NCBI GenBank assembly: GCA_913055945.1 | Contig: CAJXKU010000001.1 | Coordinates: forward strand, 1 to 42,760 | Direction: 5' to 3' | From: an uncultured Lentisphaerota bacterium | GTDB lineage: Bacteria > Verrucomicrobiota > Lentisphaeria > Oligosphaerales > CAJXKU01 | DNA length: 42,760 nucleotides | Part shown: positions 4,391 through 42,760 of the stretch, one piece after another | Numbering within the stretch: position 1 is the stretch's first letter | Layout of the letters: every line of letters starts with the position of its first letter | Notes under the pieces: generated by a model | Database searches by the model: none | What the model was told of the DNA's origin: nothing | What the model saw: only the letters and a program-made list of their open reading frames with translations | Program-made: the position numbers and the translations under genes

Positions 4391-4443
4391 AAAAGGTTGG
4401 AGCGGTTACCATCTGTCTGAAAGAGCCGTTCCAACCTTTTTTT
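4391..4443 (+). terminator. Rho-independent terminator downstream of fba
   Basis: The arm AAAAGGTTGGAGCGG (4391-4405) pairs with CCGTTCCAACCTTTT (4426-4440), giving 15 bp with one G-U. The loop is 20 nt and the stem runs into a 7-T tract (4437-4443). The A-tract/T-tract symmetry could make it bidirectional. Confidence 0.6.
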
Positions 4444-22709: not shown

Positions 22710-23103
22710 GTCTTCTCCTGGTATGTTCATTTTTCCGATGGGAATATGAGTGTTTACTCTCACTTTGCAAGTTCTAATCAGAAGTACGCTTAAAGCAATC
22801 AGCGAAGAAAGCGAAAAGCTTTTCACAACGCCGCGGGTCAATACTTCCGTTCGTAGTATTCAACGGGTGTTTAGCGGGTTACAGGATGGAAGAATCAAAC
22901 CCGCTTTGTTGTTATATTATCGGAGAATTATGCTGTAGACTGTGTCGCAGCTGTTGAATTGGAACCGTAAAACTGATAAAGCGTGGGGGTATACTTTTAC
23001 GCATCTGCCGGGATCCGCATGGATTAAGCCTGTGAGAACTGACGTCTTTAAAGTATTTGCGAGAAGCCTATCTTTCCGTGCAGGATTATGGAGGACAAAG
23101 TTT

Positions 23104-26100: not shown

Positions 26101-26739
26101 AGCGTCGCTTTGACACCCCGCGCGCGCTATCTGTTGTCCGGAAGTTGGGATTACACGCTTCGCCTCTGGTATTTGGAAAGTGGCCGATGCGCCACGACCA
26201 TCACCACCCCGTCGGCGAAGATTACCAGTGTTGATGTCTGCTACTACCACGGGCTTTACGGGGTATCCGGTGCTTATGAACGAGTCGTAAGACTTTGGGA
26301 CCTTACGGAACGGCGCTGTATTCGTACATTCAAAGGCCATAACGGCTATGTATCTTCGGTAGCAATATCTGAGGACGGAAATTTTATCGTATCCGGAAGC
26401 TACGACAGGTCAATAAAGTTGTGGAATGCCGCCACAGGTAAATGTGTCCAAACCTTTGTGGGGCATACAAGCTTCGTGACTGACGTTCTTTTGACACCCG
26501 ATAAGTCATGGGTTATCTCTGCCGCCTATGATCGGACACTGCGAATCTGGGAGGTCAGAACGGGCCGTTGCGTCAAAGTCCTGGAAGGACACGAAGGATT
26601 CGTTTACTGCGTCGCTCACAGTACCAATGGGCGATGGATGATCTCCAGCGGTACGGACATGACTCTGTTATTCTGGGAACTGGATTGGAATCTGGCCAGC
26701 GTAGAAGAAGAAGTTTCCCGCAGACAACAGAGACGGTGA
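23104..26739 (+). CDS. Zinc-ribbon / Ser-Thr-kinase-like / TPR / double 7-bladed WD40 protein (probable pseudokinase or atypical kinase)
   Basis: The GTG at 23104 is 8 nt after GGAGGA and gives M-ERFIVICPNCQG (the track starts at GTG 22942). Zinc ribbon CPNC-x16-CAAC. The kinase-like domain has VVIK, HLDVKPSN and an APD(H)L segment, but GFG replaces DFG (nt 23821-23829) and there is no GxGxxG loop. TPR-like helices follow, then 7 + 7 WD40 repeats. Confidence 0.8.
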   Translation: MERFIVICPNCQGYSYFSQVYSQKAACAACGTHFIVSPPTSPVNRLSSGGSFMPAQADSGYQSEEETFLLQQLGRAEPGEHWETGAVIDNMYTVERFLSDTPRATVYCASHHCWEVPVVIKQFKPAALPEPRHREMLLDKLEKWRSMELFPYAVTCYYYRDRQPLPLIFSEYVSGGSLDNWCRSGQLYEGSQSEVQTRLIDFACQLLQQLKYIHKKGKLHLDVKPSNVLITPAQSVKLTGFGASATFIFFRCELEAVRTRIAAQAHAGGGQRPDPAVPAIRVPAHLAPDHLSTKKLVPATDIYNWALTVLEMFTGAPTWMTGGSPLEALEGCFNGDTSCAAEMPRNLKRILETCLLQEPESRPAEVKDLTAPMADLYRSISGQRYSFVKYKDRRYRADRLNNRGACKLDLDRVQEARHLFARALHADASHVEATYNLGMLRWRMGELDDEDFLSQLQHLPEARKNTPDGTCLLAMIQEERGEWLVARRLIERLPSTICNQLSISAKQLEERQNDAIGRFKRYTADGDAAVLATALNPSGHYLLAGTIDGTLRYWDTETGASRDLPNSAAEGIRSVVFSADAQAAFAGTVGGTLLIRDLGNGQNSCDVPAHEGDINQVVLTPGETSAFTCGEDGMVLMWNLHDNTVFRTFRRHSDRARSLAVSSDGKWLLSAGACDELWLHDSESGEVVIELPGHEGQINSVALSPDGRWAVSASDDRTLRMWSTRTGECVREFHGHERGVQSVCGNTTFLWLISGGWDKTVKLWEVATGRCLRTIRDHDSWVSSVTMDADATLMASGGGEGSVYQRYISPICQEHRWQKKPHIAICRPEAEESDSQETCALDMYEDLLRRARRAYRHRRYAKALSLARQARKLHTGQNEPEIMKLWRALTPHCIRTRLFNSWLRYRSDESIGVVGDVDVSADGQTVVSAGHDYTVRVWDTDSGTVLRTLTGHSDIVSCVALAENGKRAFSGSYDQNIRVWNVRAGTCEGLLQGHSGAVSSVALTPRARYLLSGSWDYTLRLWYLESGRCATTITTPSAKITSVDVCYYHGLYGVSGAYERVVRLWDLTERRCIRTFKGHNGYVSSVAISEDGNFIVSGSYDRSIKLWNAATGKCVQTFVGHTSFVTDVLLTPDKSWVISAAYDRTLRIWEVRTGRCVKVLEGHEGFVYCVAHSTNGRWMISSGTDMTLLFWELDWNLASVEEEVSRRQQRR
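24688..25527 (+). repeat. WD40 repeat array 1 (7 blades) within the kinase-like protein
   Basis: Seven ~40-aa units end in WD-like dipeptides: ..GTLRYWD, ..GTLLIRD, ..GMVLMWN, ..DELWLHD, ..RTLRMWS, ..KTVKLWE, ..GSVYQRY. Confidence 0.8.
25837..26679 (+). repeat. WD40 repeat array 2 (7 blades) within the kinase-like protein
   Basis: Seven units: ..YTVRVWD, ..QNIRVWN, ..YTLRLWY, ..RVVRLWD, ..RSIKLWN, ..RTLRIWE, ..MTLLFWE. Each is preceded by a GH/TP-type start. Confidence 0.85.
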
Positions 26740-26937: not shown

Positions 26938-27738
26938 TCATTGCCTTTGGTTTTGTTTGAATGACCGCGGGGAAACTCCGTTATAGCGTCGGAAAACACG
27001 CGAGAAATAGAGCGGATCGTAATAACCTGTTCGACGAGCAACTTCAGCCGTTGAACATCGAGTGAATGTCAAAAGATCCTCAGCGCGCGCCATCTTCTTC
27101 CTTTCATGCAGTTTCTGGACCGATGCGCCGAACCATCGCTTCGCCTTACGGCATAGGGTGGTTTTCGATACGCCGAAATATTCTCCAATACGTGCAAGGT
27201 CAGTGGGTTCGGCGATATGGGCATCAAGATATTCGTCAAGCGTATGGGCGGAGAGACCGGATTCCTGGGGTGCCTGAACGCTGCCCGTCAACGTAACCAG
27301 CGCCTGGACGAGATACGCTTCCCGCCACCCCATCTCATCCGGGAGATCACGAGAAGAAAACTGCCCCATTTGTTTTAGGTAATGGCTGACGTCATATGCG
27401 AAATTATGCGGGAAAAAACAGTCCGCCTGCCGCTTCAGAATATCAGCAGCCATCGATACGGCGTAGTGGCCGTTGAATCGACAATAATAGTGCGTATACG
27501 GACAGGCGGTATCGGAGGCAAGTATACCGGCGTCGCCGGGTGTTACGAGCCCGATCATTCCCCCGGTAACGCTGCGCTTGCCTTCGCTGTTCTCGTAATA
27601 TCCCTGGCCGCTGAGAAATACAGTAAGCATCACGTCTCCACCTTTCGTGCCCGGGGTGGAATGGTACGGGGAGTTGCTGATGAGCCCCGACGTACGAACT
27701 CGGAAGGGAGGCGCTGAAACATTCTGATCATCGTTCAT
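26938..27738 (-). CDS. AraC-family transcriptional regulator (cupin-like sensor + AraC HTH)
   Basis: C-terminal AraC HTH signature (LARIGEYFGVSKTTLCRKAKRWFG ... TAEVARRTGYYDPLYFSRVFRRYNGVSPRSF). I chose the start at ATG 27738 (MNDDQN). It is divergent from the GH4 gene, with a 138-bp shared intergenic region. Confidence 0.8.
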   Translation of the reverse strand: MNDDQNVSAPPFRVRTSGLISNSPYHSTPGTKGGDVMLTVFLSGQGYYENSEGKRSVTGGMIGLVTPGDAGILASDTACPYTHYYCRFNGHYAVSMAADILKRQADCFFPHNFAYDVSHYLKQMGQFSSRDLPDEMGWREAYLVQALVTLTGSVQAPQESGLSAHTLDEYLDAHIAEPTDLARIGEYFGVSKTTLCRKAKRWFGASVQKLHERKKMARAEDLLTFTRCSTAEVARRTGYYDPLYFSRVFRRYNGVSPRSFKQNQRQ

Positions 27739-27876
27739 TTCATCCGTCCTGCAAATATTCTCTATGTCATTGCAAATATTGTCGCGTTTGAAGGCTGTTT
27801 CATGAAAATATAATAAATACTGTGAGCAGGACAGTTCGATTGAACAAAAATACGATGAATCAAGGAGGAACAAGCT

Positions 27877-29274
27877 GTGCAATCACCAAAAATTGTTGTC
27901 ATCGGCGCGGGGAGTCACTTTTTTGGTCGACCTGTGATATGGAATATGGTCAACAGCGAAATTCTGAAAGGAGGCACTCTTGCGCTTGTTGATACTGATC
28001 CGGACACGCTGAATACGCTCATGGATCTCGCGCGGAAAGCAGTTGATGCGGCGGGTACTCCTACTGTTGTGACAGGCTCTACGGACCGTCGCGAAGTATT
28101 GCAGGACGCCGATTTCGTTGTACTGACATTCAGTGAGCATAATACCCACTACAGATGTATGGATGCGGAAGTATCCTTTAAGCATGGCGTCCGAATGTGT
28201 TCCGCCGATACCATCGGTCCCGGCGGCATTTTCCGTTCTCTTCGGGAAATTCCCCGTGCGCTGGAAATGGCGGAAGACATTAGAGAACTCGCGCCGGATG
28301 CATGGACGATAAACTTCGTCAACCCCACAGCCGTACTCGGTATTGCGCTAAGGCGCTACGCACCTGAGATCCGTTCGTTCGCTATTTGTGATTCTCATCA
28401 TGAACCGTATTATCGGCTGAAAACCCTGAAAAAGCTCGGCATTCTTCCGGAAGACGCCACGGAGATTCCCACAGAGATCGAGCGCAAGCTGGACCTGCAC
28501 GTGATGGGCGTCAATCATTTTACATGGATAACGAAACTCAACTACGACGGAAAGGACTATCTCCCCGAATGGTATCAGAAATTGTTGCAGGAGGCAGAAG
28601 AATCGCTGCAATCGAAAGAAATCGGCGGACCGGATATTGCCCCGGATTCGAAAGGTAAATTCAATCCGGTATATGCGCAGCAACTAATGGAAATGTTTGG
28701 CGCCTATCCGGACATAATCAGCCACACGAAGGAGTACGTACCGTTTTTCCAGGGGTGCGGAACGGAAGATATTTACCCTGAACCGATCAGGGTGTTTGAC
28801 GGCCATCACCGAGCGCAGCTTATGGCTGAGAAGTGGAACGAAACCCAGCAGTTCGCCCGTGGTGAGAAATCGATCGGGGAATTCCTCAGCTCTGGTCAGC
28901 CTGATCACGCAACGGATATCATCGAAGCTGTGTGGGGTAATCTGCGCAAACCTTTTTACATCAATACGCTTAACAGCGGGGCCGTTCCGAACATGGCTGA
29001 TGATGCGTTTCTGGAACTGCGCTGCGATGTGGATATCAATGGCCCGCGGCCCCAGCCTTTAGACCCCATGCCGCGTGGGCTTCTGGGATTGCAGCAAAAC
29101 GTACTGGATACGCATGAGCTTACGGCAGAAGCTGCGGTCAGCTGTGATCGCCATACGCTCCTGCGCGCGATGATGACTGACCCCATTATCCATAATTATG
29201 AAGATGCTAAGAATATTATGAACGAATTGCTCGAACGACAGAGCGACATCCTGCCGACTGAGTGGTACGAGTGA
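27877..29274 (+). CDS. Glycoside hydrolase family 4 (NAD+/Mn2+-dependent alpha-glucosidase/alpha-galactosidase-like)
   Basis: N-terminal Rossmann KIVVIGAGSHFFG, APDAWTINFVNPTAVL and the Cys/His metal site FAICDSHHEP, followed by VNHFTWI. The GTG start is 8 nt after AGGAGG. Confidence 0.85.
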   Translation: MQSPKIVVIGAGSHFFGRPVIWNMVNSEILKGGTLALVDTDPDTLNTLMDLARKAVDAAGTPTVVTGSTDRREVLQDADFVVLTFSEHNTHYRCMDAEVSFKHGVRMCSADTIGPGGIFRSLREIPRALEMAEDIRELAPDAWTINFVNPTAVLGIALRRYAPEIRSFAICDSHHEPYYRLKTLKKLGILPEDATEIPTEIERKLDLHVMGVNHFTWITKLNYDGKDYLPEWYQKLLQEAEESLQSKEIGGPDIAPDSKGKFNPVYAQQLMEMFGAYPDIISHTKEYVPFFQGCGTEDIYPEPIRVFDGHHRAQLMAEKWNETQQFARGEKSIGEFLSSGQPDHATDIIEAVWGNLRKPFYINTLNSGAVPNMADDAFLELRCDVDINGPRPQPLDPMPRGLLGLQQNVLDTHELTAEAAVSCDRHTLLRAMMTDPIIHNYEDAKNIMNELLERQSDILPTEWYE

Positions 29275-31088: not shown

Positions 31089-31721
31089 ATGCCCAGTAGA
31101 CCTGAAGAAACCGCAGCGGCCGCCGCACCTGTACTTGCTCTTGACATCGGGAATGTATGTGTGCAACTTGACAGTACGGAGTGTGCGCGGCGTTTGGGGT
31201 ACAGTTCACTTGATGAACTGATCGGTGTTATGCCCGTGGTGCGTACTTATGCCCGCTCCCTGGAAACGGGATATCTTGCGGACGCCGTGTTCTTTTCGCT
31301 GCTCGCGCGAACCCTCCCCGAGGCGTGGTCAGCGGCTGAAGTTATCCCGTGGTGGTGCAGTATTATACAAGCGGAGATACCGGGTATGGCAGAGGTTGTG
31401 GATGCAGCCGTGGCTCGGGGGCTGAAACCCGCCTTTTTCTCGGATATATCCGTCACTCATTTGGCGTACACCCGCGGATTGCTTTCCTTTGAATCTAGGG
31501 TGCCGGATGCGGTGTGCAGTTTCGAGGTAGGTGCCTCTAAGCCGGATCCTCGAATGTACGCCGCCTTCGAAGAACAACTATGTGGCGGAAGCACGCCTGC
31601 TCTGTTCGTGGACGACAAACCGGAAAATGTACAGCAGGCGCAGAAGCGAGGTTGGCCCGCTGTCGTTTTCACTTCGCCGGAGGCGCTGATGGAAGAGGTG
31701 AAAAACGCTGGCTCACGCTAG
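31089..31721 (+). CDS. HAD-superfamily hydrolase (YihX-like, DxGNV motif I)
   Basis: Motif I LALDIGNVCV (compare E. coli YihX FDLGNV, from memory), motif II FFSDIS, motif III GASKPDPRMY and motif IV FVDDKPENV. The ATG at 31089 has AGGAGG 6 nt upstream. An alternative ATG is at 31023. Confidence 0.65.
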   Translation: MPSRPEETAAAAAPVLALDIGNVCVQLDSTECARRLGYSSLDELIGVMPVVRTYARSLETGYLADAVFFSLLARTLPEAWSAAEVIPWWCSIIQAEIPGMAEVVDAAVARGLKPAFFSDISVTHLAYTRGLLSFESRVPDAVCSFEVGASKPDPRMYAAFEEQLCGGSTPALFVDDKPENVQQAQKRGWPAVVFTSPEALMEEVKNAGSR

Positions 31722-31796
31722 ATTTTGCAGTTCATTTTGTGGTGGCAGAGGCAGCGGGTTTGTGAGGGACACGGGGACCGACTGTCCGTATGAGAG

Positions 31797-31840
31797 AACT
31801 GCGTTCAGCCTGTCAAACTGCGTTCAGGAATTGCATTCAG
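31797..31840. repeat. Short direct repeats in a convergent intergenic region
   Basis: AACTGCGTTCAG at 31797-31808 and again at 31816-31827, followed by the degenerate copy TTGCATTCAG at 31831-31840. Confidence 0.4.
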
Positions 31841-32060
31841 CATGTCTGCCGAACCTCATACCGGCGCGGCCACCAACGAAAGCGTAGGATGTACCCAATA
31901 AGAAACTAAGCGCGGTATTGACGGTAAATAATCGCCCCACGCAGTGGTCTCATACCGGGGTGTCAGCGTGACTTGGCCCCCGGCGTGTTGGCTGGTATGG
32001 CGCTCTGCGGGGCATTGTCGGTGTCACCTCAGCGCTGAGATGCGCCATGCGCGTCCTGGA

Positions 32061-34640
32061 TCACTCCTCGATCAGTTCGTAGACGTTGACCGACTCCGGC
32101 TTGAACGCGGTATTCTCTGACTGTCCGTAGCTACGTGGTGAAGGATCGTCGGAAGTGAGTTCGCGCACCTTCTGCCCCTCGGCCCACGGGATGGGGGCTT
32201 TTACCGCCTTTTCCTCAGAGAAGTTCGTCACGGCAACGAACTCGCGGCCATCGGCGGTGCCGTGGCGTACCTCCAGTTTCGGGACGGGAAGGTAGGCGGG
32301 AGCATTGCCGGTCACCCGGCCCCACCAGTAAAAAGGCGCTTGGTGGACGGTGGTGTAGGGCGCATCGAGCCCTTCAGCCGGGTCGATCGCCTGATCGAGC
32401 TGCTGCCAGTTCGGGATTTCCGTTGCCCTACGCCGTAATTCTGCGAGTTGATCCGCAGGTAGCTTTTCGCCGTATTCGTTCGTTTCAGGTACGCCGCCCA
32501 CCGCTATAACGTCGCGAGTGGCCGGCAGTTCATTGATCCGCTTGAGCGTGTCGGCCGTGAGCCAGGGTGCCGCCACAATCAGCGTGTCCGTAACGTGTTC
32601 AGCGGAAACGTCCTCGTTCAATACGTATTTCCAGGGTTTGCCCAGTGCGCCGACGTATCCGTAGGCCTGGATGGCTCCACCGATTTCGGGCCGGACATCG
32701 CTTCGCGGGATCTGGTTCCAGCCTCGGTTGCCTTCAGTGATCATAACGGCGATACCGGCGTCCACGCGAGCTTCATACAAGGCGCGGAAGGCGTCTTCGT
32801 GCGTGCGGAGCCAGTGGCGGGCTTTTGTCGCGGTTGCCTTATGGTATTCGCGCGTGCCCTCTCTGCCCATCGGCGCCTCCTCTGTCTTGACCGTTGTGGT
32901 TTCCCGGCTGTAGGAAGTGCTTTTGAAGAGGCCCTGCAGGAAGGTGTGCAAGAGGTGAAACTGGACTTCCGATGGCGTCGAGCTGCCGTGGTTGTAAAGA
33001 TGGTGCTCGCTGTTCCAGACCGGCTTGCTTTGCGCGATCTGCTGGCTATCGACCATGAGCTGACTGAAGCTGGGCGGTACTTTGCAGACCGGGTGGTCGA
33101 AGCTCGCCCCGTTGAATTCGGGGACCTCGCGAAAGAGATAGGGGTTGGCGCGGGTCTTGGTGGTGTAGATGACCCCCGGAACCTGCTCACCTTCCCGCGG
33201 GGTGAGCAGTGGCTGGAGGTCCTTTGCACGGTTCTTGAAATCGGTTTTCCACATGGTTTCGTGACCTTTTTGCGGCTCTTCGAGTGCCTTGTATCGGCGA
33301 CCCCAGACGGTGCGGATGAAGCGCTTGAAGTCGAGCAAGGCGGGGAACTTCGCGTAGGCGTGGTAGCGGAGCGGTTCGTGAAACAGCGTGTACAGAAAGC
33401 TCAACCGTTCGTTGCCGCCGAGGAGGTTGTACTCGAATCCCGACTCTTTCATCATCCGCTCGACCCAGTCAAGCGGAAGTTCGGGCAACCCGATGCTGTC
33501 GATCGAGGTGTAGGAGGTGTCCCAGCGTTCATTGATCGTCTCAACGTCGCCGTGTTTCTCCCTGAGCCAGTCCCGGAATTGCTCGATGGCGATCTGAAGT
33601 TCTTCCTTCGCCTCCTTATCAACCTCTCCGAGGCCATCAATGTGTGGTTGCCCTTCCACTTCCTCGAGTTGCGCCTGCGGCAGGGCGTAGTAGCTTTTAT
33701 AAAGGGGGATGAGAATGCGGGGCGGGTGGTCTTCGTTCTCGGCGTACATCCCTCGGGCCGCCGGATAGTTGCGCGCTTTCCGGAATGTGGCGATGAGAGG
33801 ATGTTCATCGAGATCCAGGTCCGGCGTGTTGCGACCTGCATAGTCTTCCCGGGAACCGAGAGGGGGCAACTGCCCCATCACGATGCCGCGTTCCTCGCAG
33901 AAACGAAGGAATGGTTCCGTGGAATAAGTGCCCATCGCGAGGTTGTAGCCCTCCATCCATATTTTTTTGATTTCGCCGAGGGCGGTACTCGAGTAACGCC
34001 TGTTGCCCATGTGCGTGGTGCCGGTCCACAGCTGGGGAAACGGGCCTTTCCAGGGTGGGCGTTGATTGTGGTAATCCGAGGGCTGAAATTCGGTGACGTC
34101 GGCGTCCGGCGGGTGGAAGAGAAAGAGATCGTGGCGATGCGACTCATCCTCGGGATTGGCTGCGAGAAACTCCCCTCCGGGCCCCTCCATGTAATCCAGA
34201 AATGCCTTGACGGCGGGGGAAGGCTTCTCGGCATGGTGGAGGACACCGTACTCGATAGCGCCGACAGGTTCGCCACCCCGCGTTGCTTCCTGCAGCGCCA
34301 GAGGCACGTACTTAAGCTTCTGCCGGTCTTCCTCGGTCGCCCGATAGTTCCAGTCCACTTTTGTGGTCAACAGCAAGTCGGCACCTTTGCCGGCATCCGG
34401 ATCTTTGACTCTGTGCATCAGCGAGGGCCAATCGCGCCAGGCGGCATTCGGCTGAAAGGTTCGTGCATCGTGGCCGGTTTCGTTCGAATACGCTTCCAGG
34501 AGCTCATTCATCAAGCGGTGTTGTTGGGCTTTCGGGGCAATCACAACCAGTTCGTCCACCTCGGCGCCATGGGCGCCGGATAAACCGATTGTGGTCGTCA
34601 GTACTGCCGCGGTGCAAAAGCTGAGAATCGTCCGATACAT
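32061..34640 (-). CDS. Secreted GH42-like (clan GH-A) multidomain protein, paralog 1 (SBP-like module + TIM barrel + trimerisation-like domain)
   Basis: The ATG at 34640 follows AAGGAG, with signal peptide MYRTILSFCTAAVLTTTIGLSGAHGA. A ModA-like solute-binding pattern is present (ELVVIAP..LMNELLEAYSNETG..GADLLLTTKVDW..YVPLA..IEYGVL..AVKAFLDYMEGPGG). TIM-barrel motifs: GMYAENED and PVWNSEHH. The C-terminal block WKYVLNEDVSAEHV..LIVAAPWLT..VIAVGGVPETNEYGEKLP is shared with the two downstream paralogs. Confidence 0.7.
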   Translation of the reverse strand: MYRTILSFCTAAVLTTTIGLSGAHGAEVDELVVIAPKAQQHRLMNELLEAYSNETGHDARTFQPNAAWRDWPSLMHRVKDPDAGKGADLLLTTKVDWNYRATEEDRQKLKYVPLALQEATRGGEPVGAIEYGVLHHAEKPSPAVKAFLDYMEGPGGEFLAANPEDESHRHDLFLFHPPDADVTEFQPSDYHNQRPPWKGPFPQLWTGTTHMGNRRYSSTALGEIKKIWMEGYNLAMGTYSTEPFLRFCEERGIVMGQLPPLGSREDYAGRNTPDLDLDEHPLIATFRKARNYPAARGMYAENEDHPPRILIPLYKSYYALPQAQLEEVEGQPHIDGLGEVDKEAKEELQIAIEQFRDWLREKHGDVETINERWDTSYTSIDSIGLPELPLDWVERMMKESGFEYNLLGGNERLSFLYTLFHEPLRYHAYAKFPALLDFKRFIRTVWGRRYKALEEPQKGHETMWKTDFKNRAKDLQPLLTPREGEQVPGVIYTTKTRANPYLFREVPEFNGASFDHPVCKVPPSFSQLMVDSQQIAQSKPVWNSEHHLYNHGSSTPSEVQFHLLHTFLQGLFKSTSYSRETTTVKTEEAPMGREGTREYHKATATKARHWLRTHEDAFRALYEARVDAGIAVMITEGNRGWNQIPRSDVRPEIGGAIQAYGYVGALGKPWKYVLNEDVSAEHVTDTLIVAAPWLTADTLKRINELPATRDVIAVGGVPETNEYGEKLPADQLAELRRRATEIPNWQQLDQAIDPAEGLDAPYTTVHQAPFYWWGRVTGNAPAYLPVPKLEVRHGTADGREFVAVTNFSEEKAVKAPIPWAEGQKVRELTSDDPSPRSYGQSENTAFKPESVNVYELIEE

Positions 34641-34708
34641 CACACTTTCTCCTTTTCTGATAATTGACAGATTCAAAAAAATCCTGTCGAAACCATTTCA
34701 GCACCAAT

Positions 34709-34738
34709 GTAATAGGACAGCATTTATATGCAAGTCAA
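34709..34738 (-). promoter_or_regulatory. Candidate sigma70-type promoter for paralog 1
   Basis: On the minus strand: TTGACT (34733-34738), an 18-nt spacer, then TATTAC (34709-34714), about 70 nt upstream of ATG 34640. This is pattern match only, and promoter rules in this lineage are unknown. Confidence 0.25.
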
Positions 34739-34782
34739 TCACGAACTCTTATTATCCGAGCGGGTGTGGCAAAGACCAGTTC

Positions 34783-34804
34783 AGACATGTCGCAGCACAT
34801 GTCT
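34783..34804. promoter_or_regulatory. Perfect 8-bp inverted repeat (candidate operator) in a divergent intergenic region
   Basis: AGACATGT (34783-34790), spacer cgcagc, ACATGTCT (34797-34804). It lies between the divergently transcribed paralog 1 and the Gfo/Idh/MocA gene. Confidence 0.35.
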
Positions 34805-35177
34805 ACGAAGCAGCGTTATTCATCGGGGGAAAAGGGTATAGCCGTTGTTAAAATGCCGTGGCGGTTCAAGTGCTACGCACAAAGACATGAACGTTCCCAA
34901 CAGAATCCGTCGAGATATTATATTGTGCACAGCCACCACCGGAGTATAGGGTGGGGAGGCGGTTTAAATGAAGTAGGATCGCAGTGGACGTAGTTGATAC
35001 GAAAAGTGCATTTACGGGCAATTCCTCCCCCCGACCTTCAATGGATAGAGGAAGGGTCCCCGGCTTTTTCTCGGTGGGCTGAGGGAGGAGACGATTGCCG
35101 TATCAGCGGGCGAATATGGTACAAGGTTCGCCTATTATAATACAGACGAAACAGCCTATGAGAAAGGGAAGGCAAAA

Positions 35178-36530
35178 ATGCAGCAGCCGAAAAGATATTC
35201 TATTGTCGGAGTTGGTGGTCGCAGCGGTATGTGGCGCGACGCCGCGGCTTTCGAATTCAGCTCTACCAGTACCTTAGTGGGCATCTGTGACTCTAACGCC
35301 GGTCGTGTTCGACGTGCACAGGAAGAACTCTCCGAAAACGAAAACCTGGACGTACCAGGATATGCTGCGGAAGATTTCGATAAGATGGTCGAGGAAACAA
35401 AGCCGAATGTTATCATCGTAACAACACCGGACCACCTTCATGATTACTATATATGCCGCTCTCTTGAATTAGACTGTGATGTGGTTACGGAAAAACCTAT
35501 GACCACGGATGAAGATAAGTGTCAGCGGATACTCGATGCAAAGCAGCGCACTGGGCGGAATATAACCGTGTCGTTTAATTACCGGTTTGCGCCGCCGCGG
35601 ACCCAAGTGAAAGACCTGCTTATGTCCGGTGTGATCGGCGACGTGCACTCTGTTGATTTCCATTGGAACCTTGATGTACACCACGGTGCTGATTATTTCC
35701 GCCGCTGGCATCGACGCAAAGAGAACTCCGGCGGGCTGCTCGTACATAAGGCGACGCATCACTTTGATCTGGTGAATTGGTGGTTGTCCTCTGTGCCGAC
35801 AAAGGTCTATGCTACGGGGCACAGGCATTTTTATACCCCTGCCACCGCGGAACGATACGGTTTAAAATCGAGGACGGACCGTTGCCATACGTGTCCGGAA
35901 GCTCCCAACTGTCCTTTTGTTATGGATTTAGAGGGTAATGAGAAACTGAAAAAACTTTACCTGGATAACGAAGGCTATGATGGTTATTTCCGGGATGGTT
36001 GCGTATTCAGTCCGGATATTGACATCGAAGACTCGATGTATGTAACGGCGGACTACAGGAACGGTGTGAAGCTTTCCTATTCACTGAATGCGTTTCTCCC
36101 CTGGGAAGGATACATGGTGGCATTTAATGGCTCCAAAGGGCGGTTAGAGCATCAATGTCAAGAAAGCGTTTACATTAATGCAGACGGTTCTGTGCCCGGC
36201 GCATTGGAAGAAAAAGGGACCTGGCTGCATATTTATCCTCATTGGCAACCTGCCTATGGCGTAGATCTGTGGAGAGGACAAGGGGGGCATGGGGGAGCCG
36301 ACCCGATTATGCTTCGCTACATCTTTGATCCCGACAACCAGCCTGCGGACAAATACATGCGTACGGCGGACGAGCGTGCAGGGGCATGGTCCGTGTTAAC
36401 CGGCGTTGCCGCGAATCACGCTATTGAGAACGGCCGACCTTTCGAAATAGATGAACTCGTGGACGGACTCTCCATGCCTGAGTATCCGCCGATGCCGGGT
36501 GCCGAAGAGCCGTTACCGACGAGAAAATAA
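35178..36530 (+). CDS. Gfo/Idh/MocA-family NAD-binding oxidoreductase (long, GH109-like subgroup)
   Basis: N-terminal Rossmann YSIVGVGGRSGMW, the EKPM motif (VVTEKPM) and YFRRWHRRKENSGGLLVHKATHHFDLVNWW. The C-terminal GGHGGADP resembles the GHGGMD block of GH109 NAD-dependent glycosidases (from memory). No signal peptide is evident. Confidence 0.85.
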   Translation: MQQPKRYSIVGVGGRSGMWRDAAAFEFSSTSTLVGICDSNAGRVRRAQEELSENENLDVPGYAAEDFDKMVEETKPNVIIVTTPDHLHDYYICRSLELDCDVVTEKPMTTDEDKCQRILDAKQRTGRNITVSFNYRFAPPRTQVKDLLMSGVIGDVHSVDFHWNLDVHHGADYFRRWHRRKENSGGLLVHKATHHFDLVNWWLSSVPTKVYATGHRHFYTPATAERYGLKSRTDRCHTCPEAPNCPFVMDLEGNEKLKKLYLDNEGYDGYFRDGCVFSPDIDIEDSMYVTADYRNGVKLSYSLNAFLPWEGYMVAFNGSKGRLEHQCQESVYINADGSVPGALEEKGTWLHIYPHWQPAYGVDLWRGQGGHGGADPIMLRYIFDPDNQPADKYMRTADERAGAWSVLTGVAANHAIENGRPFEIDELVDGLSMPEYPPMPGAEEPLPTRK

Positions 36531-36810
36531 ACGAAAACGGGTATGGATCAAACGCTTGGCGTCTGCCGAAATGACGCTTTCTGCTACTGTGGAAAAATCA
36601 CCTTCGGAGGGGGAAGGCACCGTAGGTGGCCGAATGCGAAAAAGCGTTTTCTAAACACATCCCGGACGTGCGCCGAAACTCGATAGCCGGAAAACAGGAA
36701 GCAGCTTGACGAACACCCGTAGGAAGTGTAAATTGGCTCAACTGTTCTGGCAGGTAGCATTGCTTTTCCCTTTAAGCCATATGCGATAAAACCAAAAAAG
36801 GAGTATAGAG

Positions 36811-39800
36811 ATGAGCAAACGGGGACAAACCACGGCAGTCATGTTGGCGAGTATGTTTTTTACGATTGTGGGCGTGCAGGGGGAAACCATAACGTTGAAC
36901 CGGGGGATCGAGGATGTTGAGATTTCTGCAGAACTCAAGGATGGGGAGCCGAAGTCTGACGGCGAAACGGCCGGCGAAAACAACGAAGGCGCCGGGAGAA
37001 TGGTTTTGGGCGACAGAAAAGGGAAAAAGCGCGGCTTTATCCTGATGCGGCTGGACTTGACCAACATCAAACGTCTGGATCCGGAAAACATATCCGATGT
37101 CCAACTTGTGATGGATTATAATTATCCGGAAGGAAACCCTGAACTGGCGCTTTACAGGATCAGTGATCAGGATGCCGACTGGAACGTTGACCAGGCGACC
37201 TGGCGACAGAAAAGAAAAGGACAGACGTGGACCGGCGGTCCGGGTGGCGGAGAGCCCGGGGAAGGCACGATTTCCGCTGAACCGATGGCCACATATAAGA
37301 AAAGCGAAGGCGAAAGTAAGGCCGTCTTTGATATTCCCGCAGAGGTGATTCGGGAGTGGGTGAAAGAAACACCGGTTCTGGGGAAGAATCCCGGAATGAT
37401 GATAAGAACTGTCGAAGACCGCTCGATGTTCGTGAGTTCTTCGGACGGCCGCAGTCATCATCCGATACTCAACATGGAGGCCGATTTTGAGGCCGACAGG
37501 TTGTTTTTTGAAGCGATCGAAGCAAACGTGAAAATCAGAGGAAGCGGAAAGCTTGGCGAGTGGTTGCTGGAGGATGCCCTCGATATTCGTTATTCTAGGG
37601 GGTATGCGCCGATGAAGTTTAATCCCGCTTTGCGTGTGACGCCTCCCTCCGAGCTGCACAACCGCTGGAACCGAATGCACAATGCCTGCGAGCAGGTGAT
37701 CCAGGGCGACGAGGGGCTGATGCTCGTGTCTCGTCTGGACTGGGAGTGGAGAGTTGATGACAAATACAAGAAGCAGTTGGAATATGTGCCGTTCGCGCGC
37801 CAGCAGGTCACCCGAATGGGAGAAGTCGTAGGCGGGGTCGAATATGGCTTGGCTAAAAAGCCTGACGTATGGATTCCGCAGGTGGAGGCTTTTCTGTATT
37901 TTGTCCGTTCCGAAGACGCGCAGGATAAGCTGGCAGAGGACGACCCCTACGGCTTTGTCCCCGTCGATACGGAGATCCCGGAGTTCGAGCCGCCGGAGGA
38001 GTGGAACCTTTCTCCGCGAGAGGGTCCGGATCCGATGATGGTGCACGGCATGGACCTGCACGGTGGGGCCTTCCACACCACCCGGATAGCGGAGATGCAG
38101 AAGATCCGCATGCTGGGCTTCAATTCCATCATGTTCGGTGGTCAGACCGAGGAAGAAATGGAATGGGCCGACCAGAACAATATGCTGATCTCCGGCAGCC
38201 CGAATCTGACGGAGGAAGATCGGGAGGAAGGCCTGTCCGACCGTGCCGCTGCGGCGAAGAAAATGGCGCAGTATGATTGCTGCTGGGGCACTTATCTGGT
38301 CAACGAGGATTCGGCAGGCGGATGGGTGGTGTCTCTCTATAATTCGTACGTTGACGGTGAAGACTGGGGACACGGAGGCGATAAGTTTCCGGAACGAGTA
38401 AAGGATTTCCAGCAGGTCGCTGAAGGCGGTTTTGCCCGCTGGGCGAAAAAGAAGCACGGCAGCTTGGAGAAGCTTAACAGCCGCTGGAACACCGACTACG
38501 AAAGCTGGGATGAAATCGATGTCCCTCCGGCGCGGCTGAGTGAAATGAAAAAGGTCTACGGGGTCGAGAACAGGGACTACCAGTATAGACTTCGCTTTGG
38601 CATCCGCGGAAGACGGTACGCAATGGCGGAGTATCCGGACCTGCTGGATTTTTTCCGGTATACCAACCGGGTATGGGCAAGCTGGTACGATGAACAGATC
38701 AAAGAAATGAGACCCTACCTGGGCGAGAATTTCCACTACACCACAAAGGCAAAGCCCGAACCTTTCATGCTGCGGGCTTCCGAGCAGTTCAACGGTGCCA
38801 GCCACGATCATGGCCCCGGGAAACATGCCGCGGTGGAGAACCAGATTTTTATCGACACTGTGCAGATCGCCAAAGGCTGGCCGGTCTGGAACAGCGAAGA
38901 CCACAGGTATCATGGGTTTGCTACACCGAGGCGCGTCAGGTACGACATGTTCAGTAATTACCTGATGGGGCAATTCCAGGATACGGCCTATGCGTGGGTG
39001 GAGGCTCCCCGTAACCGTACGACAAAGGGGGATGGCCAGATGCTCGCCGAGGATTCACGCATCAGAAGCCAGATCCGCCGGTATGAAGACATTTTCCGCG
39101 CGCTCCTTGAGGCACGCGGCGACGCTGATCTTGCGGTCCTTGCCAACGAACAGAACAGGGCGTGGGATGAGTATCATCCCCGGCCGGAGGAATCGTATCT
39201 GGGCGGCGCCATTAAGGCGTTTGCGTATATGGGGGCGTTGGGTCGTCACTGGAAATATGTACTCAGCCACGACGTTTCCCCCGAACACGTGACGGGCAAA
39301 CTGATTATTGATGCCCGCTGGCTTACGAATGAGACGCTTCAGAAAATAGCAGACCTCCCCGCGGACCGCGAACTCGTGGTGGTGGGGGATATGCCGGAGA
39401 AGAACGAGTATGGGGAACCGCTTCCTGAAGACGAGTTGCAGCAAGTGAAAGACCGTGCGGAAAAAGTGGCCGCGTGGGAGAATCTCACCGAAGCAGTGCC
39501 GGCGGCGGACGGTCTGATGGATCCCTACACCCGGATATCGGAGGCCAAATGGTGGGTATGGAATCGCTTCCGCGGTCGGGAAGCGTGGTTCCATATGCTG
39601 CCGGTGGCGCGGCTTGAAGTCCGGCGGGTCAAACACGATGGAAACCTCTATCTGGCGGTGATGAACCATCGGGACCGCGCGATTACGGCGCCCATTCCGT
39701 GGGCGGAGGGCAAGGAAGTGAAGGAACTGATCGGCAAGAATCCCGGCGAAATCGTGGAAGATCCCGATAACTACCGCTTTAAACGGGAAGGCGTGGCCTT

Positions 39801-39816
39801 GTTCGAAATCCGTTGA
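36811..39816 (+). CDS. Secreted GH42-like multidomain protein, paralog 2 (DNRLRE-like beta-sandwich + SBP-like module + TIM barrel + trimerisation-like domain)
   Basis: AGGAG lies 7 nt before the ATG; signal peptide MSKRGQTTAVMLASMFFTIVGVQG. The N-terminal domain has a DNRLRE-like pattern (GFILMRLDLTNI..ISDVQLVMDY..LALYRISDQDADWNVDQATWRQK). Candidate acid/base is E499 in LVNEDS (nt 38305-38307). A GH42-like block follows: FARWAKKKHGSLEKLNSRWNTDYESWDEI. Candidate nucleophile is E696 in PVWNSEDH (nt 38896-38898). Confidence 0.75.
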   Translation: MSKRGQTTAVMLASMFFTIVGVQGETITLNRGIEDVEISAELKDGEPKSDGETAGENNEGAGRMVLGDRKGKKRGFILMRLDLTNIKRLDPENISDVQLVMDYNYPEGNPELALYRISDQDADWNVDQATWRQKRKGQTWTGGPGGGEPGEGTISAEPMATYKKSEGESKAVFDIPAEVIREWVKETPVLGKNPGMMIRTVEDRSMFVSSSDGRSHHPILNMEADFEADRLFFEAIEANVKIRGSGKLGEWLLEDALDIRYSRGYAPMKFNPALRVTPPSELHNRWNRMHNACEQVIQGDEGLMLVSRLDWEWRVDDKYKKQLEYVPFARQQVTRMGEVVGGVEYGLAKKPDVWIPQVEAFLYFVRSEDAQDKLAEDDPYGFVPVDTEIPEFEPPEEWNLSPREGPDPMMVHGMDLHGGAFHTTRIAEMQKIRMLGFNSIMFGGQTEEEMEWADQNNMLISGSPNLTEEDREEGLSDRAAAAKKMAQYDCCWGTYLVNEDSAGGWVVSLYNSYVDGEDWGHGGDKFPERVKDFQQVAEGGFARWAKKKHGSLEKLNSRWNTDYESWDEIDVPPARLSEMKKVYGVENRDYQYRLRFGIRGRRYAMAEYPDLLDFFRYTNRVWASWYDEQIKEMRPYLGENFHYTTKAKPEPFMLRASEQFNGASHDHGPGKHAAVENQIFIDTVQIAKGWPVWNSEDHRYHGFATPRRVRYDMFSNYLMGQFQDTAYAWVEAPRNRTTKGDGQMLAEDSRIRSQIRRYEDIFRALLEARGDADLAVLANEQNRAWDEYHPRPEESYLGGAIKAFAYMGALGRHWKYVLSHDVSPEHVTGKLIIDARWLTNETLQKIADLPADRELVVVGDMPEKNEYGEPLPEDELQQVKDRAEKVAAWENLTEAVPAADGLMDPYTRISEAKWWVWNRFRGREAWFHMLPVARLEVRRVKHDGNLYLAVMNHRDRAITAPIPWAEGKEVKELIGKNPGEIVEDPDNYRFKREGVALFEIR

Positions 39817-40074
39817 AAAACGCACCGTCGAGAAAATCCCAGGTGACGGGTTTAACCAAAAAGACAAAGGGGATCGGAAGTTGTGCTCACCTCCTGACAG
39901 GGGGATATCTGCCTTCTGGTCTGTGGAAAGGATGACCTGGAAACCGGAGAAGATAACGTCGAAACACATGTAACCTCCTGTTCGGGCATAGAGGCGAAAC
40001 TCATGTGCTTTGCTTGTAGATAGTTCCCCCGGAACGCTGAGAACATACACAATACTAGAAAAGGAAATCCAGGT

Positions 40075-42760
40075 ATGAAAAGAATATTGGGCATTATTAC
40101 GGGAAGCATCGCTGTCATATCAATGTCATTAACAGCTACAGCGGAGGAGCCCATCGCCCTGACAACGGATATGATCAAAGACACCCTCCTGAGGGTGAAA
40201 ATCGCGGATGGGGAAGAAGTTCTGGACGGCGAGCGTGCCGGAAAGAATTTTAAAGACACCGGCAGGCCACGGATCGGAAAAAGCGACACCGGTCTGTCGC
40301 GTGTGCTTTTACGAATCGATGTCTCCAATCTCAGATTGCTGGACCTGAAAAACATCGACAAAGCTCGCCTTGTTTTAAACTATTCCTATCCCGGCGGGAA
40401 CCCTACCCTCGGGTTATACCGCGTGACTGATCAGGACGCTGACTGGAATCTCGAGCAAGCCACCTGGAAACAGAAAAACAGCGACGAAGAATGGACAGGC
40501 GGCACGGGCGGAGGTGAACCCGGTGCCGGCACGTATGCGGAAGATCCCATCGATACATGCAAAGCAGACAATGGCGGCAAAGTTGAGTTCGAAATTCCGT
40601 CGTCGTTGGTACGCACCTGGATCGAGGGGGACAATGCCGACCAGAAGAATCCGAGTATCATGCTCAGATTTGAAGACAAGGGCAGCGTAAAACTGCAGAC
40701 GCAGGGGTATCCCCCGGGCAGCAGCACGCACTTGTACGTAGACGCCGATTGGAAAGCGGACAAAGCCTTCTATCGCAAGGCATCCGGTAAGCTTTCACTG
40801 TTGGGTGCTCCCGCTGTTGACAAACAATTGATCGACCAAACCCTGCAATCCGCTTTGCAGGAATTCAACCCGAATCTGAGCAAGGTTCCCGCTGATGATA
40901 TTTCCACCCGGTGGTGTCGTTGGTACCCTGGCCAGTATAACGCGTTTAATATCGTCCGGCAGGGTGGCTACGATCTGGCCATTACATCGCGTCAGGATTG
41001 GAAAGAACGGGTTTCGGAAGAACAGAAAAAAGGCCTAACATATGTTCCGGTCGCCAAACAACTGGTTTATCGCGACGGTGATGTCGCGGGCGGTGTTGAA
41101 TATGCGGTTGTGTTCCGGAACGATGCATGGATTCCTCAAGTACATGCCTTTGTGAAAGCCCTCCGCTCTTCGGTTGCTCAGAAGAGGTTGGCCCAGGACA
41201 ACACCTACCTTTTCGCTCCGCTAGACAAAGAACTGCCCTCTTTTGAGCCGCCGTCTTATTGGCGGGAAAAGCCCTGGAAAACGGAAAAGGAGCCTATGAT
41301 GGTTCATGGCGTGGATTTCCACCAGGGGGGCTATTATACCACGGTATTGGCTGAATTGACGAAAATGAAAATGCTGGGCTACAACTCCGTCATGTACGGC
41401 GGTCATCCGGAAAAAGTCATGGAGTGGGCGGATGAGAACGGCATGTTGCTTTCCGGTATGGCCCATGTAACAAAAGAAGATCGGAAAGGTGGACGCTCGC
41501 GTCACGCCGCTGCCGCCAAAAAGATGGCAAAGCATCCCTCTTGCTGGGGAGCATTCCTCGCGAATGAAGATACGGCGACCCACTGGATGGTCAAAATGTA
41601 CCGCGGGGAACTCGGCAAGAACCCCCCCGCCCGTGTCAAGGCCTTCGCCAGGGTGAAATACGGCGGATTTGAAGAATGGGCAAAGCAAAAACATAAAAAT
41701 CTGGAAAAACTGAACGACCGATGGAACACGGATTATAACAGCTGGGCGGACATATTCTTGCCGGATCCCCGGTTGGAGGAAATCGTGGACATTTATGACC
41801 GGATACTCGATCCGGAAGATGTGGGGTACCAGTGGCGCACCCGCCTGGGAGCGCGAGGGATCCGCTATACAATGGCGAAATACCCGGATCTGCTGGACTT
41901 ACATCGCCAGTGCCGCCGCGTCTGGGCCAGTTGGTATGATGAGCGTATAGTGGAAATGCGCGAGTATCTCGGCGATGATTTCCGATATACCGTCAAAGCG
42001 AAACCGCAACCGTACACCCATCGGGCGTCCAAGCAGTTCAACGGCGCCTGTCACGACCACGGCCCGCCGAAGAGTGGAGCGGTGGATCTTCAGATTTTCG
42101 TGGATACAGTGCAGATCGCCAAAGGATGGCCCGTGTGGAATGCGGAGGATCACATATACACCCCGCCGTCCACGCCGCGGCTTGTACGGTTCGATATCTT
42201 TTCCAAATACCTGATGGGGCAGTTCCAGGACACCTCATACTACTGGGGAAGCACCAGCGGCAGAGCCATATCCCGCAAACGCGGCACGGAGCATTATCAG
42301 GCGGAGAAAGAGACGCGCGACAAGATCCGCAGATACGAACCGATCCTCCGGGCGTTCCTGGAGGCACGGGCAAAGGCTGATCTCGCGGTGCTGGTAACCG
42401 AGGGCAACCGCGCATGGGATGAATATGATCCGCGGCCGGAGGAATCGTATCTCGGCGGAGCGATCAAGGCCTATGCCTATATGGGGGCGCTCGGGCGACA
42501 ATGGAAATACGTGCTGGACCGGGACATATCTGCGGAAAGCGTGCAGGACGTGCTGGTCATCGATGCACCGTGGTTGACGGATCAGACGATAGAGCGACTC
42601 AGCAAACTCCCTTCGGACCGACGTCTGATCGCAGTCGGCGAAGTGCCGAACACGAACGAGTATGGGGAACCGCTTCCCGAAGACGCCCTCAACAAAGTGA
42701 AGAAACGCGCCACCGTGATTCAGGACTGGCCCGAACTGAGCGATGTTGTTAAACCGGCGG
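40075..42760 (+). CDS. Secreted GH42-like multidomain protein, paralog 3 (3'-truncated by the window end; absent from the ORF track)
   Basis: My own translation from ATG 40075 gives MKRILGIITGSIAVISMSLTATAEEP..., open for 895 codons to the last base. It is collinear with paralog 2: RVLLRIDVSNL..LGLYRVTDQDADWNLEQATWKQK, FLANEDTAT, FEEWAKQKHKNLEKLNDRWNTDYNSW, FNGACHDHGP, WPVWNAEDH and WKYVLDRDISAESV..LIAVGEVPNTNEYGEPLPEDAL. Confidence 0.8.
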   Translation, partial: MKRILGIITGSIAVISMSLTATAEEPIALTTDMIKDTLLRVKIADGEEVLDGERAGKNFKDTGRPRIGKSDTGLSRVLLRIDVSNLRLLDLKNIDKARLVLNYSYPGGNPTLGLYRVTDQDADWNLEQATWKQKNSDEEWTGGTGGGEPGAGTYAEDPIDTCKADNGGKVEFEIPSSLVRTWIEGDNADQKNPSIMLRFEDKGSVKLQTQGYPPGSSTHLYVDADWKADKAFYRKASGKLSLLGAPAVDKQLIDQTLQSALQEFNPNLSKVPADDISTRWCRWYPGQYNAFNIVRQGGYDLAITSRQDWKERVSEEQKKGLTYVPVAKQLVYRDGDVAGGVEYAVVFRNDAWIPQVHAFVKALRSSVAQKRLAQDNTYLFAPLDKELPSFEPPSYWREKPWKTEKEPMMVHGVDFHQGGYYTTVLAELTKMKMLGYNSVMYGGHPEKVMEWADENGMLLSGMAHVTKEDRKGGRSRHAAAAKKMAKHPSCWGAFLANEDTATHWMVKMYRGELGKNPPARVKAFARVKYGGFEEWAKQKHKNLEKLNDRWNTDYNSWADIFLPDPRLEEIVDIYDRILDPEDVGYQWRTRLGARGIRYTMAKYPDLLDLHRQCRRVWASWYDERIVEMREYLGDDFRYTVKAKPQPYTHRASKQFNGACHDHGPPKSGAVDLQIFVDTVQIAKGWPVWNAEDHIYTPPSTPRLVRFDIFSKYLMGQFQDTSYYWGSTSGRAISRKRGTEHYQAEKETRDKIRRYEPILRAFLEARAKADLAVLVTEGNRAWDEYDPRPEESYLGGAIKAYAYMGALGRQWKYVLDRDISAESVQDVLVIDAPWLTDQTIERLSKLPSDRRLIAVGEVPNTNEYGEPLPEDALNKVKKRATVIQDWPELSDVVKPA

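Follow-up and report, generated by a model that had tools for sequence, protein, structure and literature searches.

Three paralogous genes of an uncultured Lentisphaerota bacterium: candidates for a new glycoside hydrolase family of clan GH-A with a solute-binding-protein-like module

Clan GH-A of the glycoside hydrolases (GH) includes several enzymes that share a three-domain A/B/C order, among them those of families GH42, GH164 and GH167. In BovGH167, E295 acts as the acid/base and E472 as the nucleophile, an E-to-Q mutant of the nucleophile being inactive, and GH167 has been described as lipid-anchored (GH167 paper). Here a stretch of 42,760 nucleotides from an uncultured Lentisphaerota bacterium (contig CAJXKU010000001.1, positions 1 to 42,760, which make up the whole contig, hereafter the window) is analysed, which contains three large genes, par1, par2 and par3, coding for proteins related to these enzymes. 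We estimate at about 0.6 the probability that the three genes code for Sec-exported retaining clan GH-A glycosidases of a rare family, remote sister of GH167 and GH42, fronted by half a solute-binding protein (half-SBP) and a DNRLRE domain and dedicated to an anionic glycan, as sequence comparisons and structure models suggest. The paralogs would work like GH167 and GH42 enzymes, yet sequence-level comparisons place them in neither family.

Three paralogous genes and their predicted export

The genes, the layout of their products (amino acid positions, aa) and the features discussed below are the following:

32061..34640, minus strand: paralog 1 (par1), 859 aa, short form, complete open reading frame (ORF); signal peptide at aa 1-25, half-SBP at ~26-185, (beta/alpha)8 domain A at ~200-625, alpha/beta domain B at ~626-760, beta-sandwich domain C at ~761-859
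34086..34565, minus strand: par1 reduced type-2 periplasmic binding protein (PBP) module, SBP_bac_11-like, aa ~26-185
33732..33734, minus strand: par1 E303 codon, motif AENED, predicted acid/base (family alignment and profile-versus-PDB alignment)
33006..33008, minus strand: par1 E545 codon, motif PVWNSEHH, predicted nucleophile (family alignment and profile-versus-PDB alignment)
36811..39816, plus strand: paralog 2 (par2, also P0001), 1001 aa, long form, complete ORF; signal peptide at aa 1-24, DNRLRE at ~25-230, half-SBP at ~236-385, domain A at ~405-770, domain B at ~771-900, domain C at ~901-1001
36883..37500, plus strand: par2 DNRLRE (CBM96-related) beta-sandwich domain (NF033679, 23.6 bits; family profile matching 8wab)
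37516..37965, plus strand: par2 half-SBP module (SBP_bac_8 match, E 0.12; module alignment A2)
38305..38307, plus strand: par2 E499 codon, motif VNEDS, predicted acid/base (invariant in 41 sequences; aligned with the NE of GH42 and GH167)
38896..38898, plus strand: par2 E696 codon, motif PVWNSEDH, predicted nucleophile (invariant in 41 sequences; aligned with FNTEGH of 6PTM, BovGH167 E472)
40075..42760, plus strand: paralog 3 (par3), long form, 895 codons, open at the contig end and cut within domain B; signal peptide at aa 1-23, DNRLRE at ~24-230, half-SBP at ~232-385, domain A from aa ~405
41566-41568, plus strand: par3 E498 codon, motif ANEDT
42145-42147, plus strand: par3 E691 codon

Pairwise comparison gives 49% identity between par2 and par3 over ~900 aa (E = 0) and 34% identity between par1 and par2 over 772 aa (E 3e-128, covering par2 residues 303-1000), a similarity far above chance by which the three genes are paralogs. 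ORF calls and these identities confirm the coordinates, strands and mutual homology given in a preliminary description of the window, and E499 and E696 of par2 lie where that description had placed them. The motifs that it quoted, PVWN(S/A)E(D/H)H, WKYVL...NEYGE.LP, AENED/VNEDS/ANEDT and FARWAKKKHGSLEKLNSRWNTDYESW, are all present, except that FNGAS(H/F)DH does not extend to par3, which reads FNGACHDH. A promoter and terminator scan of positions 31700-40200 gave counts that were not above those of shuffled sequence.

The N-termini of par1, par2 and par3 all have the layout of a signal peptide, with a basic n-region, a hydrophobic stretch (12-aa Kyte-Doolittle means of 1.9-2.5) and a small-residue cleavage motif, as judged from sequence layout and hydropathy; the same hydropathy inspection revealed no n-/h-/c-region layout in the Gfo/Idh/MocA oxidoreductase encoded between par1 and par2. 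The three proteins are, on this basis, exported via predicted Sec signal peptides. Their presence had been noted before and was considered unusual for GH42-like proteins, a qualification that can be dropped, because GH167, the nearest relative, is also exported.

The GH42/GH167-like core and its predicted active site

Profile searches recognise the core of the paralogs only locally. Pfam PF02449 (Glyco_hydro_42) matches at profile positions 144-230 of 376, on the helix 'F..W...KHG....LN..W' that follows strand 4, with 24.9 bits in par2, 19.3 in par3 and 17.5 in par1 against a gathering score of 21, so that par2 alone passes. GH42M (PF08532) and GH42C (PF08533) have no match at E <= 1 in any paralog (Pfam scan), no NCBIfam model matches the core and Pfam adds nothing to the weak local GH42 match; these libraries thus contain no known family that covers the core at full length. 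In a single-sequence search (phmmer), par2 finds 6ptm (BovGH167) at E 0.0033 over 40 residues only. A profile made from A3, an alignment of 41 sequences from all three architecture tiers of the family (see below) with a mean column identity of 19%, matches 6ptm at E 3.6e-13, in a significant stretch of ~110 residues, and the GH42 chains 9ta3, 6y2k and 1kwg at E 6.5e-12, 1.4e-11 and 3.7e-10, respectively; weaker PDB matches include more GH42 chains, GH50 agarases, GH14, GH5, GH158 and GH2.

An AlphaFold2 model of par2, built from an 11-sequence alignment and of medium quality (pLDDT 71.6, pTM 0.67), begins with a beta domain, which is followed by an alpha/beta module (residues 239-384), a region of alternating beta strands and alpha helices (413-770), a Rossmann-like domain (774-895) and a beta-sandwich (909-1000). 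Foldseek comparison of this model with PDB gave 73 matches at E <= 1e-3, among them the following:

9whd: GH167 (Wenyingzhuangia), E 4.8e-12
6ptm: GH167 (BovGH167), E 5.0e-12
4uzs, 4uoq, 8ibt, 5dfa, 4oif, 3tts: GH42, E 7e-12 to 1.4e-10 (best chain each)
7vkw, 7x87 and others: Ignavibacterium album beta-1,2-glucosyltransferase, E ~1e-11 to 2e-10
6t7g, 7omi: GH164 beta-mannosidase (Bs164), E ~2e-10 to 6e-10

These matches extend over ~700-800 aligned columns at 9-13% identity (for the GH42 structures ~750-790 columns, with target-normalised TM-scores of 0.42-0.48), all of them are clan GH-A proteins with the A/B/C domain order (7VKW is a transferase that we take to belong to GH35) and none is clearly ahead of the others. 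The predicted structure therefore agrees with the TIM barrel that had been proposed for these proteins, A/B/C clan GH-A enzymes being its best matches. The proposal of a GH42-like core, consistent with the local Pfam matches, with the GH167, GH42, GH164 and GH35-type structures found by the model and with profile matches of E 3.6e-13 to 1e-9, largely holds for the C-terminal ~600 aa, which model with a GH42-type A/B/C architecture, GH167 being at least as close as GH42. The alpha/beta domain that had been likened to the GH42 trimerisation domain corresponds to it in fold (Foldseek and the position of domain B), not in sequence, where GH42M finds no match.

The helix recognised by PF02449 was also met outside this family: in the search of representative sequences, the motif 'F..W...KYG....LN..YGT.Y.SF.EI..P' is present 2-5 times in tandem in proteins from outside the window that are otherwise unrelated (P0078, P0084, P0105, P0120, P0125, P0148 and P0155). 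Two of them, P0078 and P0084, resemble ABC sugar permeases (BPD_transp_1 by Pfam for P0078 only); their first transmembrane helix is followed by a large loop that contains the repeats. This free-standing repeat version of the GH42/GH167 helix appears undescribed.

GH167 and the paralogs have in common the A/B/C order plus an extra N-terminal domain, the NE acid/base, an FN(S/T)E-x-H nucleophile motif and the F..W...KHG....LN..W helix, and GH167 is likewise exported and works with S1 sulfatases (GH167 paper). However, structural identity is ~12%, without family-level sequence similarity over the catalytic domain; the N-domain of GH167 is all-helical, whereas the paralogs have an alpha/beta half-SBP like that of type-2 PBPs (PBP2-like) and, in the long forms, DNRLRE as well; and NE is separated from the helix motif by an insert of ~42 residues in the paralogs, as against ~20 in GH167. 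With GH42 (1KWG, 4UCF, 4UNI, 6Y2K) they share the three-domain architecture, the aligned acid/base NE and the helix motif seen by PF02449, although identity is 10-13%, the Pfam match is local and the paralogs add N-terminal accessory modules and predicted export. GH164 Bs164 and the I. album transferase have the same three-domain clan GH-A layout and similar Foldseek scores, but identity of 9-11%, other motifs and no accessory modules in common with the paralogs.

These comparisons bear on whether the paralogs might simply be divergent members of a defined CAZy family, such as GH42, GH167 (beta-neocarrabiose-releasing exo-carrageenases) or a family without a solved structure like GH165, in which case only the accessory modules would be new. 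The best sequence and fold matches are indeed to GH167 and GH42, par2 exceeds the Pfam GH42 threshold (24.9 > 21), 6ptm and the paralogs have the nucleophile motif in common, and the sulfatases found next to some relatives (see below) recall the contexts of GH167. We nevertheless hold this explanation to be unlikely, given that the GH42 match is confined to 144-230 of 376 positions, with par1 and par3 below threshold and GH42M and GH42C missing, that the single-sequence likeness to 6ptm amounts to 40 residues at E 0.003, that structural identity of 9-13% is roughly equal towards four families, that the all-helical N-domain of GH167 has a PBP2-like alpha/beta module in its place here and that no NCBIfam model matches. 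The paralogs are thus a candidate new GH family in clan GH-A, its newness being judged against Pfam, NCBIfam and PDB and not against the CAZy/dbCAN HMMs, which include structure-less families such as GH165.

Only seven columns of A3 are invariant in the 41 sequences (G436, N498, E499, E696, H698, W814 and P963, in par2 numbering), and the invariance of N498, E499, E696 and H698 includes core-only relatives at 19-30% identity; three further residues at the barrel end, K646, D666 and Y700, are invariant or near-invariant. Predicted strand 4 ends in a conserved block '(G/x)NE(D/V)' that contains the first of these glutamates, E499, and predicted strand 7 ends in 'P-x-(W/F/Y)-(N/D)-x-E-x-H', which contains the second, E696. 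In the A3 profile comparisons, the family 'lgNE' falls on 'LCNE' of 6ptm and on 'DNEYG' or 'NNEYG' of the GH42 chains (1kwg, 6y2k, 9ta3), and 'PvfNsElH' falls on 'MFNTEGH' of 6ptm, in a collinear second stretch that runs on through domains B and C. The 6ptm residues aligned to the pair are chain positions 293 and 470, at a constant offset of 2 from E295 and E472, and for this reason E499 and E696 are regarded as homologues of the GH167 catalytic pair, E499 as the predicted acid/base and E696 as the predicted nucleophile. The conservation across homologs that had been expected of the proposed catalytic residues is therefore found, N498-E499 and E696 being present in 41/41 sequences and aligned with the GH42 NE and with E295/E472 of BovGH167. 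Another glutamate, E780 (in TEGNR), was considered as nucleophile and rejected: it starts domain B, it is not invariant in core-only relatives, and the GH167 nucleophile aligns with E696 instead. Homology predicts the usual mode of catalysis of clan GH-A, retaining double displacement on a beta-linked (equatorial) glycoside, for which E499 (NE, end of strand 4) would be the acid/base and E696 (P-x-(W/F)-N-x-E-x-H, end of strand 7) the nucleophile.

The same residues bear on the idea that the proteins are pseudoenzymes, i.e., non-catalytic glycan-binding or structural surface proteins built on a GH42-like fold. Multiple binding-type modules, the tandem arrays of the family and the low confidence of the model at the putative catalytic strands would fit such a role, which we consider very improbable because pseudoenzymes normally lose the residues that are invariant or near-invariant here in 41 sequences (NE, E-x-H, K646, D666 and Y700).

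Modules in front of the barrel

The long forms begin with a DNRLRE domain. NF033679, the NCBIfam model for DNRLRE, scores 38.7 bits in par3, above its cut-off of 34, and below it in par2 (23.6 bits); a DNRLRE match is found in 8/10 long forms (E <= 0.01), and a profile of the N-terminal domain has a single match in PDB, 8wab, a DNRLRE protein (E 0.0014). The N-terminal beta-sandwich of DNRLRE type that had been described for par2 and par3 is thus borne out, more weakly in par2. DNRLRE domains, which occur on alginate, hyaluronate and pectate lyases, share ~30% identity with the alginate-binding module on which CBM96 was founded (PMC9971899). The enzymes named in that work are lyases, whereas the paralogs carry DNRLRE on a GH-A hydrolase core.

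A second module of ~160 residues is kept in all long and short forms (par1 26-185, par2 236-385). When the 21 modules of a dedicated alignment (A2, mean identity 38%) were scanned singly against Pfam, ten matched SBP_bac_11 (PF13531; E <= 1, best E 1.9e-6), four SBP_bac_8, two SBP_bac_6, one LysR_substrate and one SBP_bac_1. The module of relative P0166 reaches 30.7 bits with SBP_bac_11, above the gathering score of 25, and that of par1 15.4 bits (E 0.016), below it. The A2 profile finds 28 PDB chains at E <= 10, nearly all of them class II binding proteins (FbpA/SfuA/YfuA/HitA, ModA, PstS), each one weakly (E 0.05-1.6). An AlphaFold2 model of the par1 module, built from A2, is confident (pLDDT 86, pTM 0.83), and its best 50 Foldseek matches are mostly type-2 PBP folds (LysR effector domains, maltose-binding protein including its fusions, a Clostridium ModA-type SBP, MalX and PEB3), with a few others, e.g., SUFU and a TRAP-type SBP.

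The module matches SBP_bac_11 at its first beta-alpha-beta unit and over its last third (profile positions 142-223 of 227), and the sequence motifs that it has in common with ModA, FbpA/SfuA and PstS are those of this initial unit and of the C-terminal strand-helix. With ~150-160 aa, it lacks ~130 middle residues relative to FbpA, essentially the second lobe, and does not attain the two-lobe Venus flytrap of ~230-340 aa. Sequence and model together suggest that the module descends from a protein of SBP_bac_11 type (ModA/FbpA) of which roughly one lobe was kept, joined by a long beta-hairpin. The ModA-type module of the preliminary description is therefore probably right as to its kind (Pfam, PDB profile and Foldseek) and its occurrence in all three paralogs, and has to be reduced in extent, from a full ModA to about one lobe. 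It differs further from SBP_bac_11 proteins in being fused in cis to an enzyme, without an associated ABC transporter. Its conserved charged and aromatic residues (D74, W75, R78, Y89, R99, E108 and Y109) suggest that it is not just a scaffold. A shallow literature search found no report of a fusion between a half-SBP and a GH-A core.

In the proposed mechanism, a glycan that is anionic and probably sulfated would be recognised or positioned by the DNRLRE domain, acting as a carbohydrate-binding module (CBM), and by the half-SBP. The role of the half-SBP lobe would be either to bind an anionic substituent or, in place of the helical domain N of GH167, to shape the entrance of the active site. 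Within one glycan, each paralog would have its own target linkage or chain length, and S1 sulfatases would act alongside, as they do with GH167 when carrageenan is degraded. The anionic or sulfated nature of the substrate, which we infer from the modules and the genomic context, is proposed with lower confidence.

Family distribution and genomic context

Word-indexed homolog searches returned nine proteins per query, and the one with par2 failed to recover par1; these counts are therefore a lower bound, and family size was drawn from a HMMER search run exhaustively against 1.84 billion cluster representatives. This search gave 421 matches at E <= 1e-3, 77 at <= 1e-10 and 37 at <= 1e-30, many of the weaker ones to the DNRLRE part alone. 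The relatives form three tiers:

Long forms, ~1000 aa: DNRLRE, SBP-like module and core (par2, par3, P0002-P0009)
Short forms, ~770-860 aa: SBP-like module and core (par1, P0015-18, P0163-164)
Core-only forms, 570-660 aa: core alone (P0025, P0029, P0032, P0036-P0050 and others)

A few short-form relatives have other N-terminal extensions (P0019, P0020, P0023 and P0166), and the core-only relatives match the profile over its entire length from barrel to C-terminus (E 1e-30 to 1e-119). Apart from the weak GH42 match described above, none of the tiers is covered by a Pfam or NCBIfam family. All JGI metagenome matches come from one sample (3300027580), the other sources being the ENA assemblies ERZ27241914 and ERZ534239, one Logan run and one metagenome-assembled genome labelled 'Planctomycetota bacterium', to which P0008 and P0167, the sole labelled relatives, belong; the family profile found no relative in the GTDB representative genomes. 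As far as sequence comparison goes, the family is real, rare and unannotated.

Paralogs are arranged in tandem in at least five loci (three copies in L005/L006, L014 and the window, two in L008 and L013), and these arrays suggest sub-specialisation on related linkages. At three independent loci an S1 sulfatase adjoins family members:

L002:3780-5285: S1 sulfatase (locus L002/L003)
L004:6260-7630: S1 sulfatase, with an FGE-sulfatase also present at 3954-5792
L019:6158-7774: S1 sulfatase (P0166 locus)

Downstream of the last of these (L019:7750-11046) lies a second, different GH42-like protein of 1098 aa, with weak matches to PF02449 and GH42M, which the profile of the paralog family does not recognise.

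A Laminin_G_3/ConA-like, 3-keto-disaccharide-hydrolase-like protein (~720-990 aa) adjoins three different family members, in copies that are 45-55% identical:

L002:5906-8836: Laminin_G_3/ConA-like protein
L011:2077-5034: Laminin_G_3/ConA-like protein
L018:3483-5654: Laminin_G_3/ConA-like protein

This recurrence suggests a conserved functional partner, of which tblastn found no copy in the window. Further neighbours of relatives are an Opp-type ABC transporter with SBP_bac_5 at one locus and a Raffinose_syn/GH36 protein at another.

The gene between par1 and par2 had been proposed as part of a glycan-processing system:

35178..36530, plus strand: Gfo/Idh/MocA NAD(P)-dependent oxidoreductase, 450 aa

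Its assignment is confirmed by PF01408 (63 bits) and PF02894 (75.5 bits); it also matches PF22725, has no equivalog-level NCBIfam assignment and gives weak partial matches only to the NCBIfam models of inositol or glycoside 3-dehydrogenases. None of the other family loci examined has such a gene, which is linked to the family at the window locus alone and was rejected as a conserved component; its absence elsewhere leaves a 'system' including Gfo/Idh/MocA without support. Most likely the gene is a neighbour peculiar to this locus, whose product may act on the released sugar. The only other carbohydrate-related neighbours in the window are a GH4 gene and its regulator:

27877-29274: GH4 NAD-dependent glycosidase (PRK15076, alpha-galactosidase-like, 257 bits, below the cut-off of 486)
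26938-27882: AraC-family regulator, divergent from the GH4 gene and slightly overlapping it

Three housekeeping-type genes, coding for a metallo-beta-lactamase (MBL)-fold hydrolase, RsmA and a haloacid dehalogenase (HAD) hydrolase, separate GH4 from par1, and the remaining genes of the window are housekeeping or regulatory.

The context also allows a reading in which the paralogs are glycosidases or transglycosylases for a neutral substrate (beta-galactans, beta-glucans or the bacterium's own exopolysaccharide), the sulfatases are coincidental and the half-SBP only buttresses the barrel, like domain N of GH167. It would account for the lack of a sulfatase in the 42.7-kb window, for the neighbours GH4 and AraC (window), Opp-type ABC transporter with SBP_bac_5 and Raffinose_syn/GH36, and for the close structural match to a transferase, the I. 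album beta-1,2-glucosyltransferase, and a lone SBP lobe cannot close on a ligand. We regard it as rather doubtful, given that DNRLRE/CBM96 relatives are found on enzymes for anionic polysaccharides (PMC9971899), that sulfatases or FGE adjoin three different family members and that the module has conserved charged and aromatic residues.

Several results weigh against the preferred reading of exported glycosidases for an anionic glycan. Concerning the substrate, the three S1 sulfatases are mutually only 25-28% identical, library scans and tblastn detected none in the window, and sulfatase genes are abundant in many genomes of the Planctomycetota-Verrucomicrobiota-Chlamydiota (PVC) group, so that chance may have contributed to the adjacency seen in 3 of ~9 contexts and the sulfatase link is, given this low identity and abundance, only suggestive. 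As to the core, TM-scores to solved structures are modest (0.42-0.50, target-normalised, with a root-mean-square deviation of ~10 A), the stretch covering strand 7 and domains B and C on 6ptm yields 8.6 bits, which is not significant alone, and the pLDDT of the par2 model falls below 50 exactly at residues 494-499 and 691-703; the model being least confident there, the geometry of the active site is only inferred. For the module, Foldseek E-values are only 1.5e-3 to 2e-2, with TM-scores of 0.3-0.48, and a shallow literature search found no precedent for binding by a single SBP lobe.

A bolder version of the preferred reading, which is speculative and probably goes too far, would be a new clan GH-A family with a domesticated SBP lobe of oxyanion type (the ModA/FbpA/sulfate-binding class) that reads sulfate or other anions beside the active site, as part of a graded toolkit of paralogs with CBM96-like DNRLRE domains, S1 sulfatases and the conserved ConA-like partner of ~980 aa.

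Elsewhere in the window, a probable type II restriction-modification pair is encoded at 8578-9940, formed by an N6/N4 DNA methylase (8578-9462; PF01555, 120 bits) and an overlapping BglII-like endonuclease ORF (9395-9940; PF09195, 23 bits, just under the gathering score). A 906-aa Ser/Thr protein kinase is followed by a calcineurin-like phosphoesterase at 4796-8400, with overlapping start and stop codons, and a 1265-aa protein with many WD40 repeats is encoded at 22942-26739. Such an inventory of eukaryote-like signalling proteins (kinase, phosphoesterase, WD40) is reminiscent of PVC-type bacteria.

Since the family is rare and known from few metagenomes, its ecological weight is probably small, and new GH families are reported regularly; the SBP-lobe fusion, together with a testable catalytic prediction, makes the paralogs a worthwhile target. 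The NE and N-x-E-x-H motifs and the A3 profile would serve to recognise in metagenomes such genes, which are now called 'hypothetical protein'. If the preferred reading is true, the paralogs would add a new family, with a new specificity, to the GH42/GH167/GH164 group of clan GH-A, probably for the breakdown of anionic or sulfated glycans, many linkages of which are still without a known enzyme. A transporter-type SBP lobe on a hydrolase would then be an unusual case of domain recycling, suggesting a class of anion-reading accessory modules apart from the classical CBMs.

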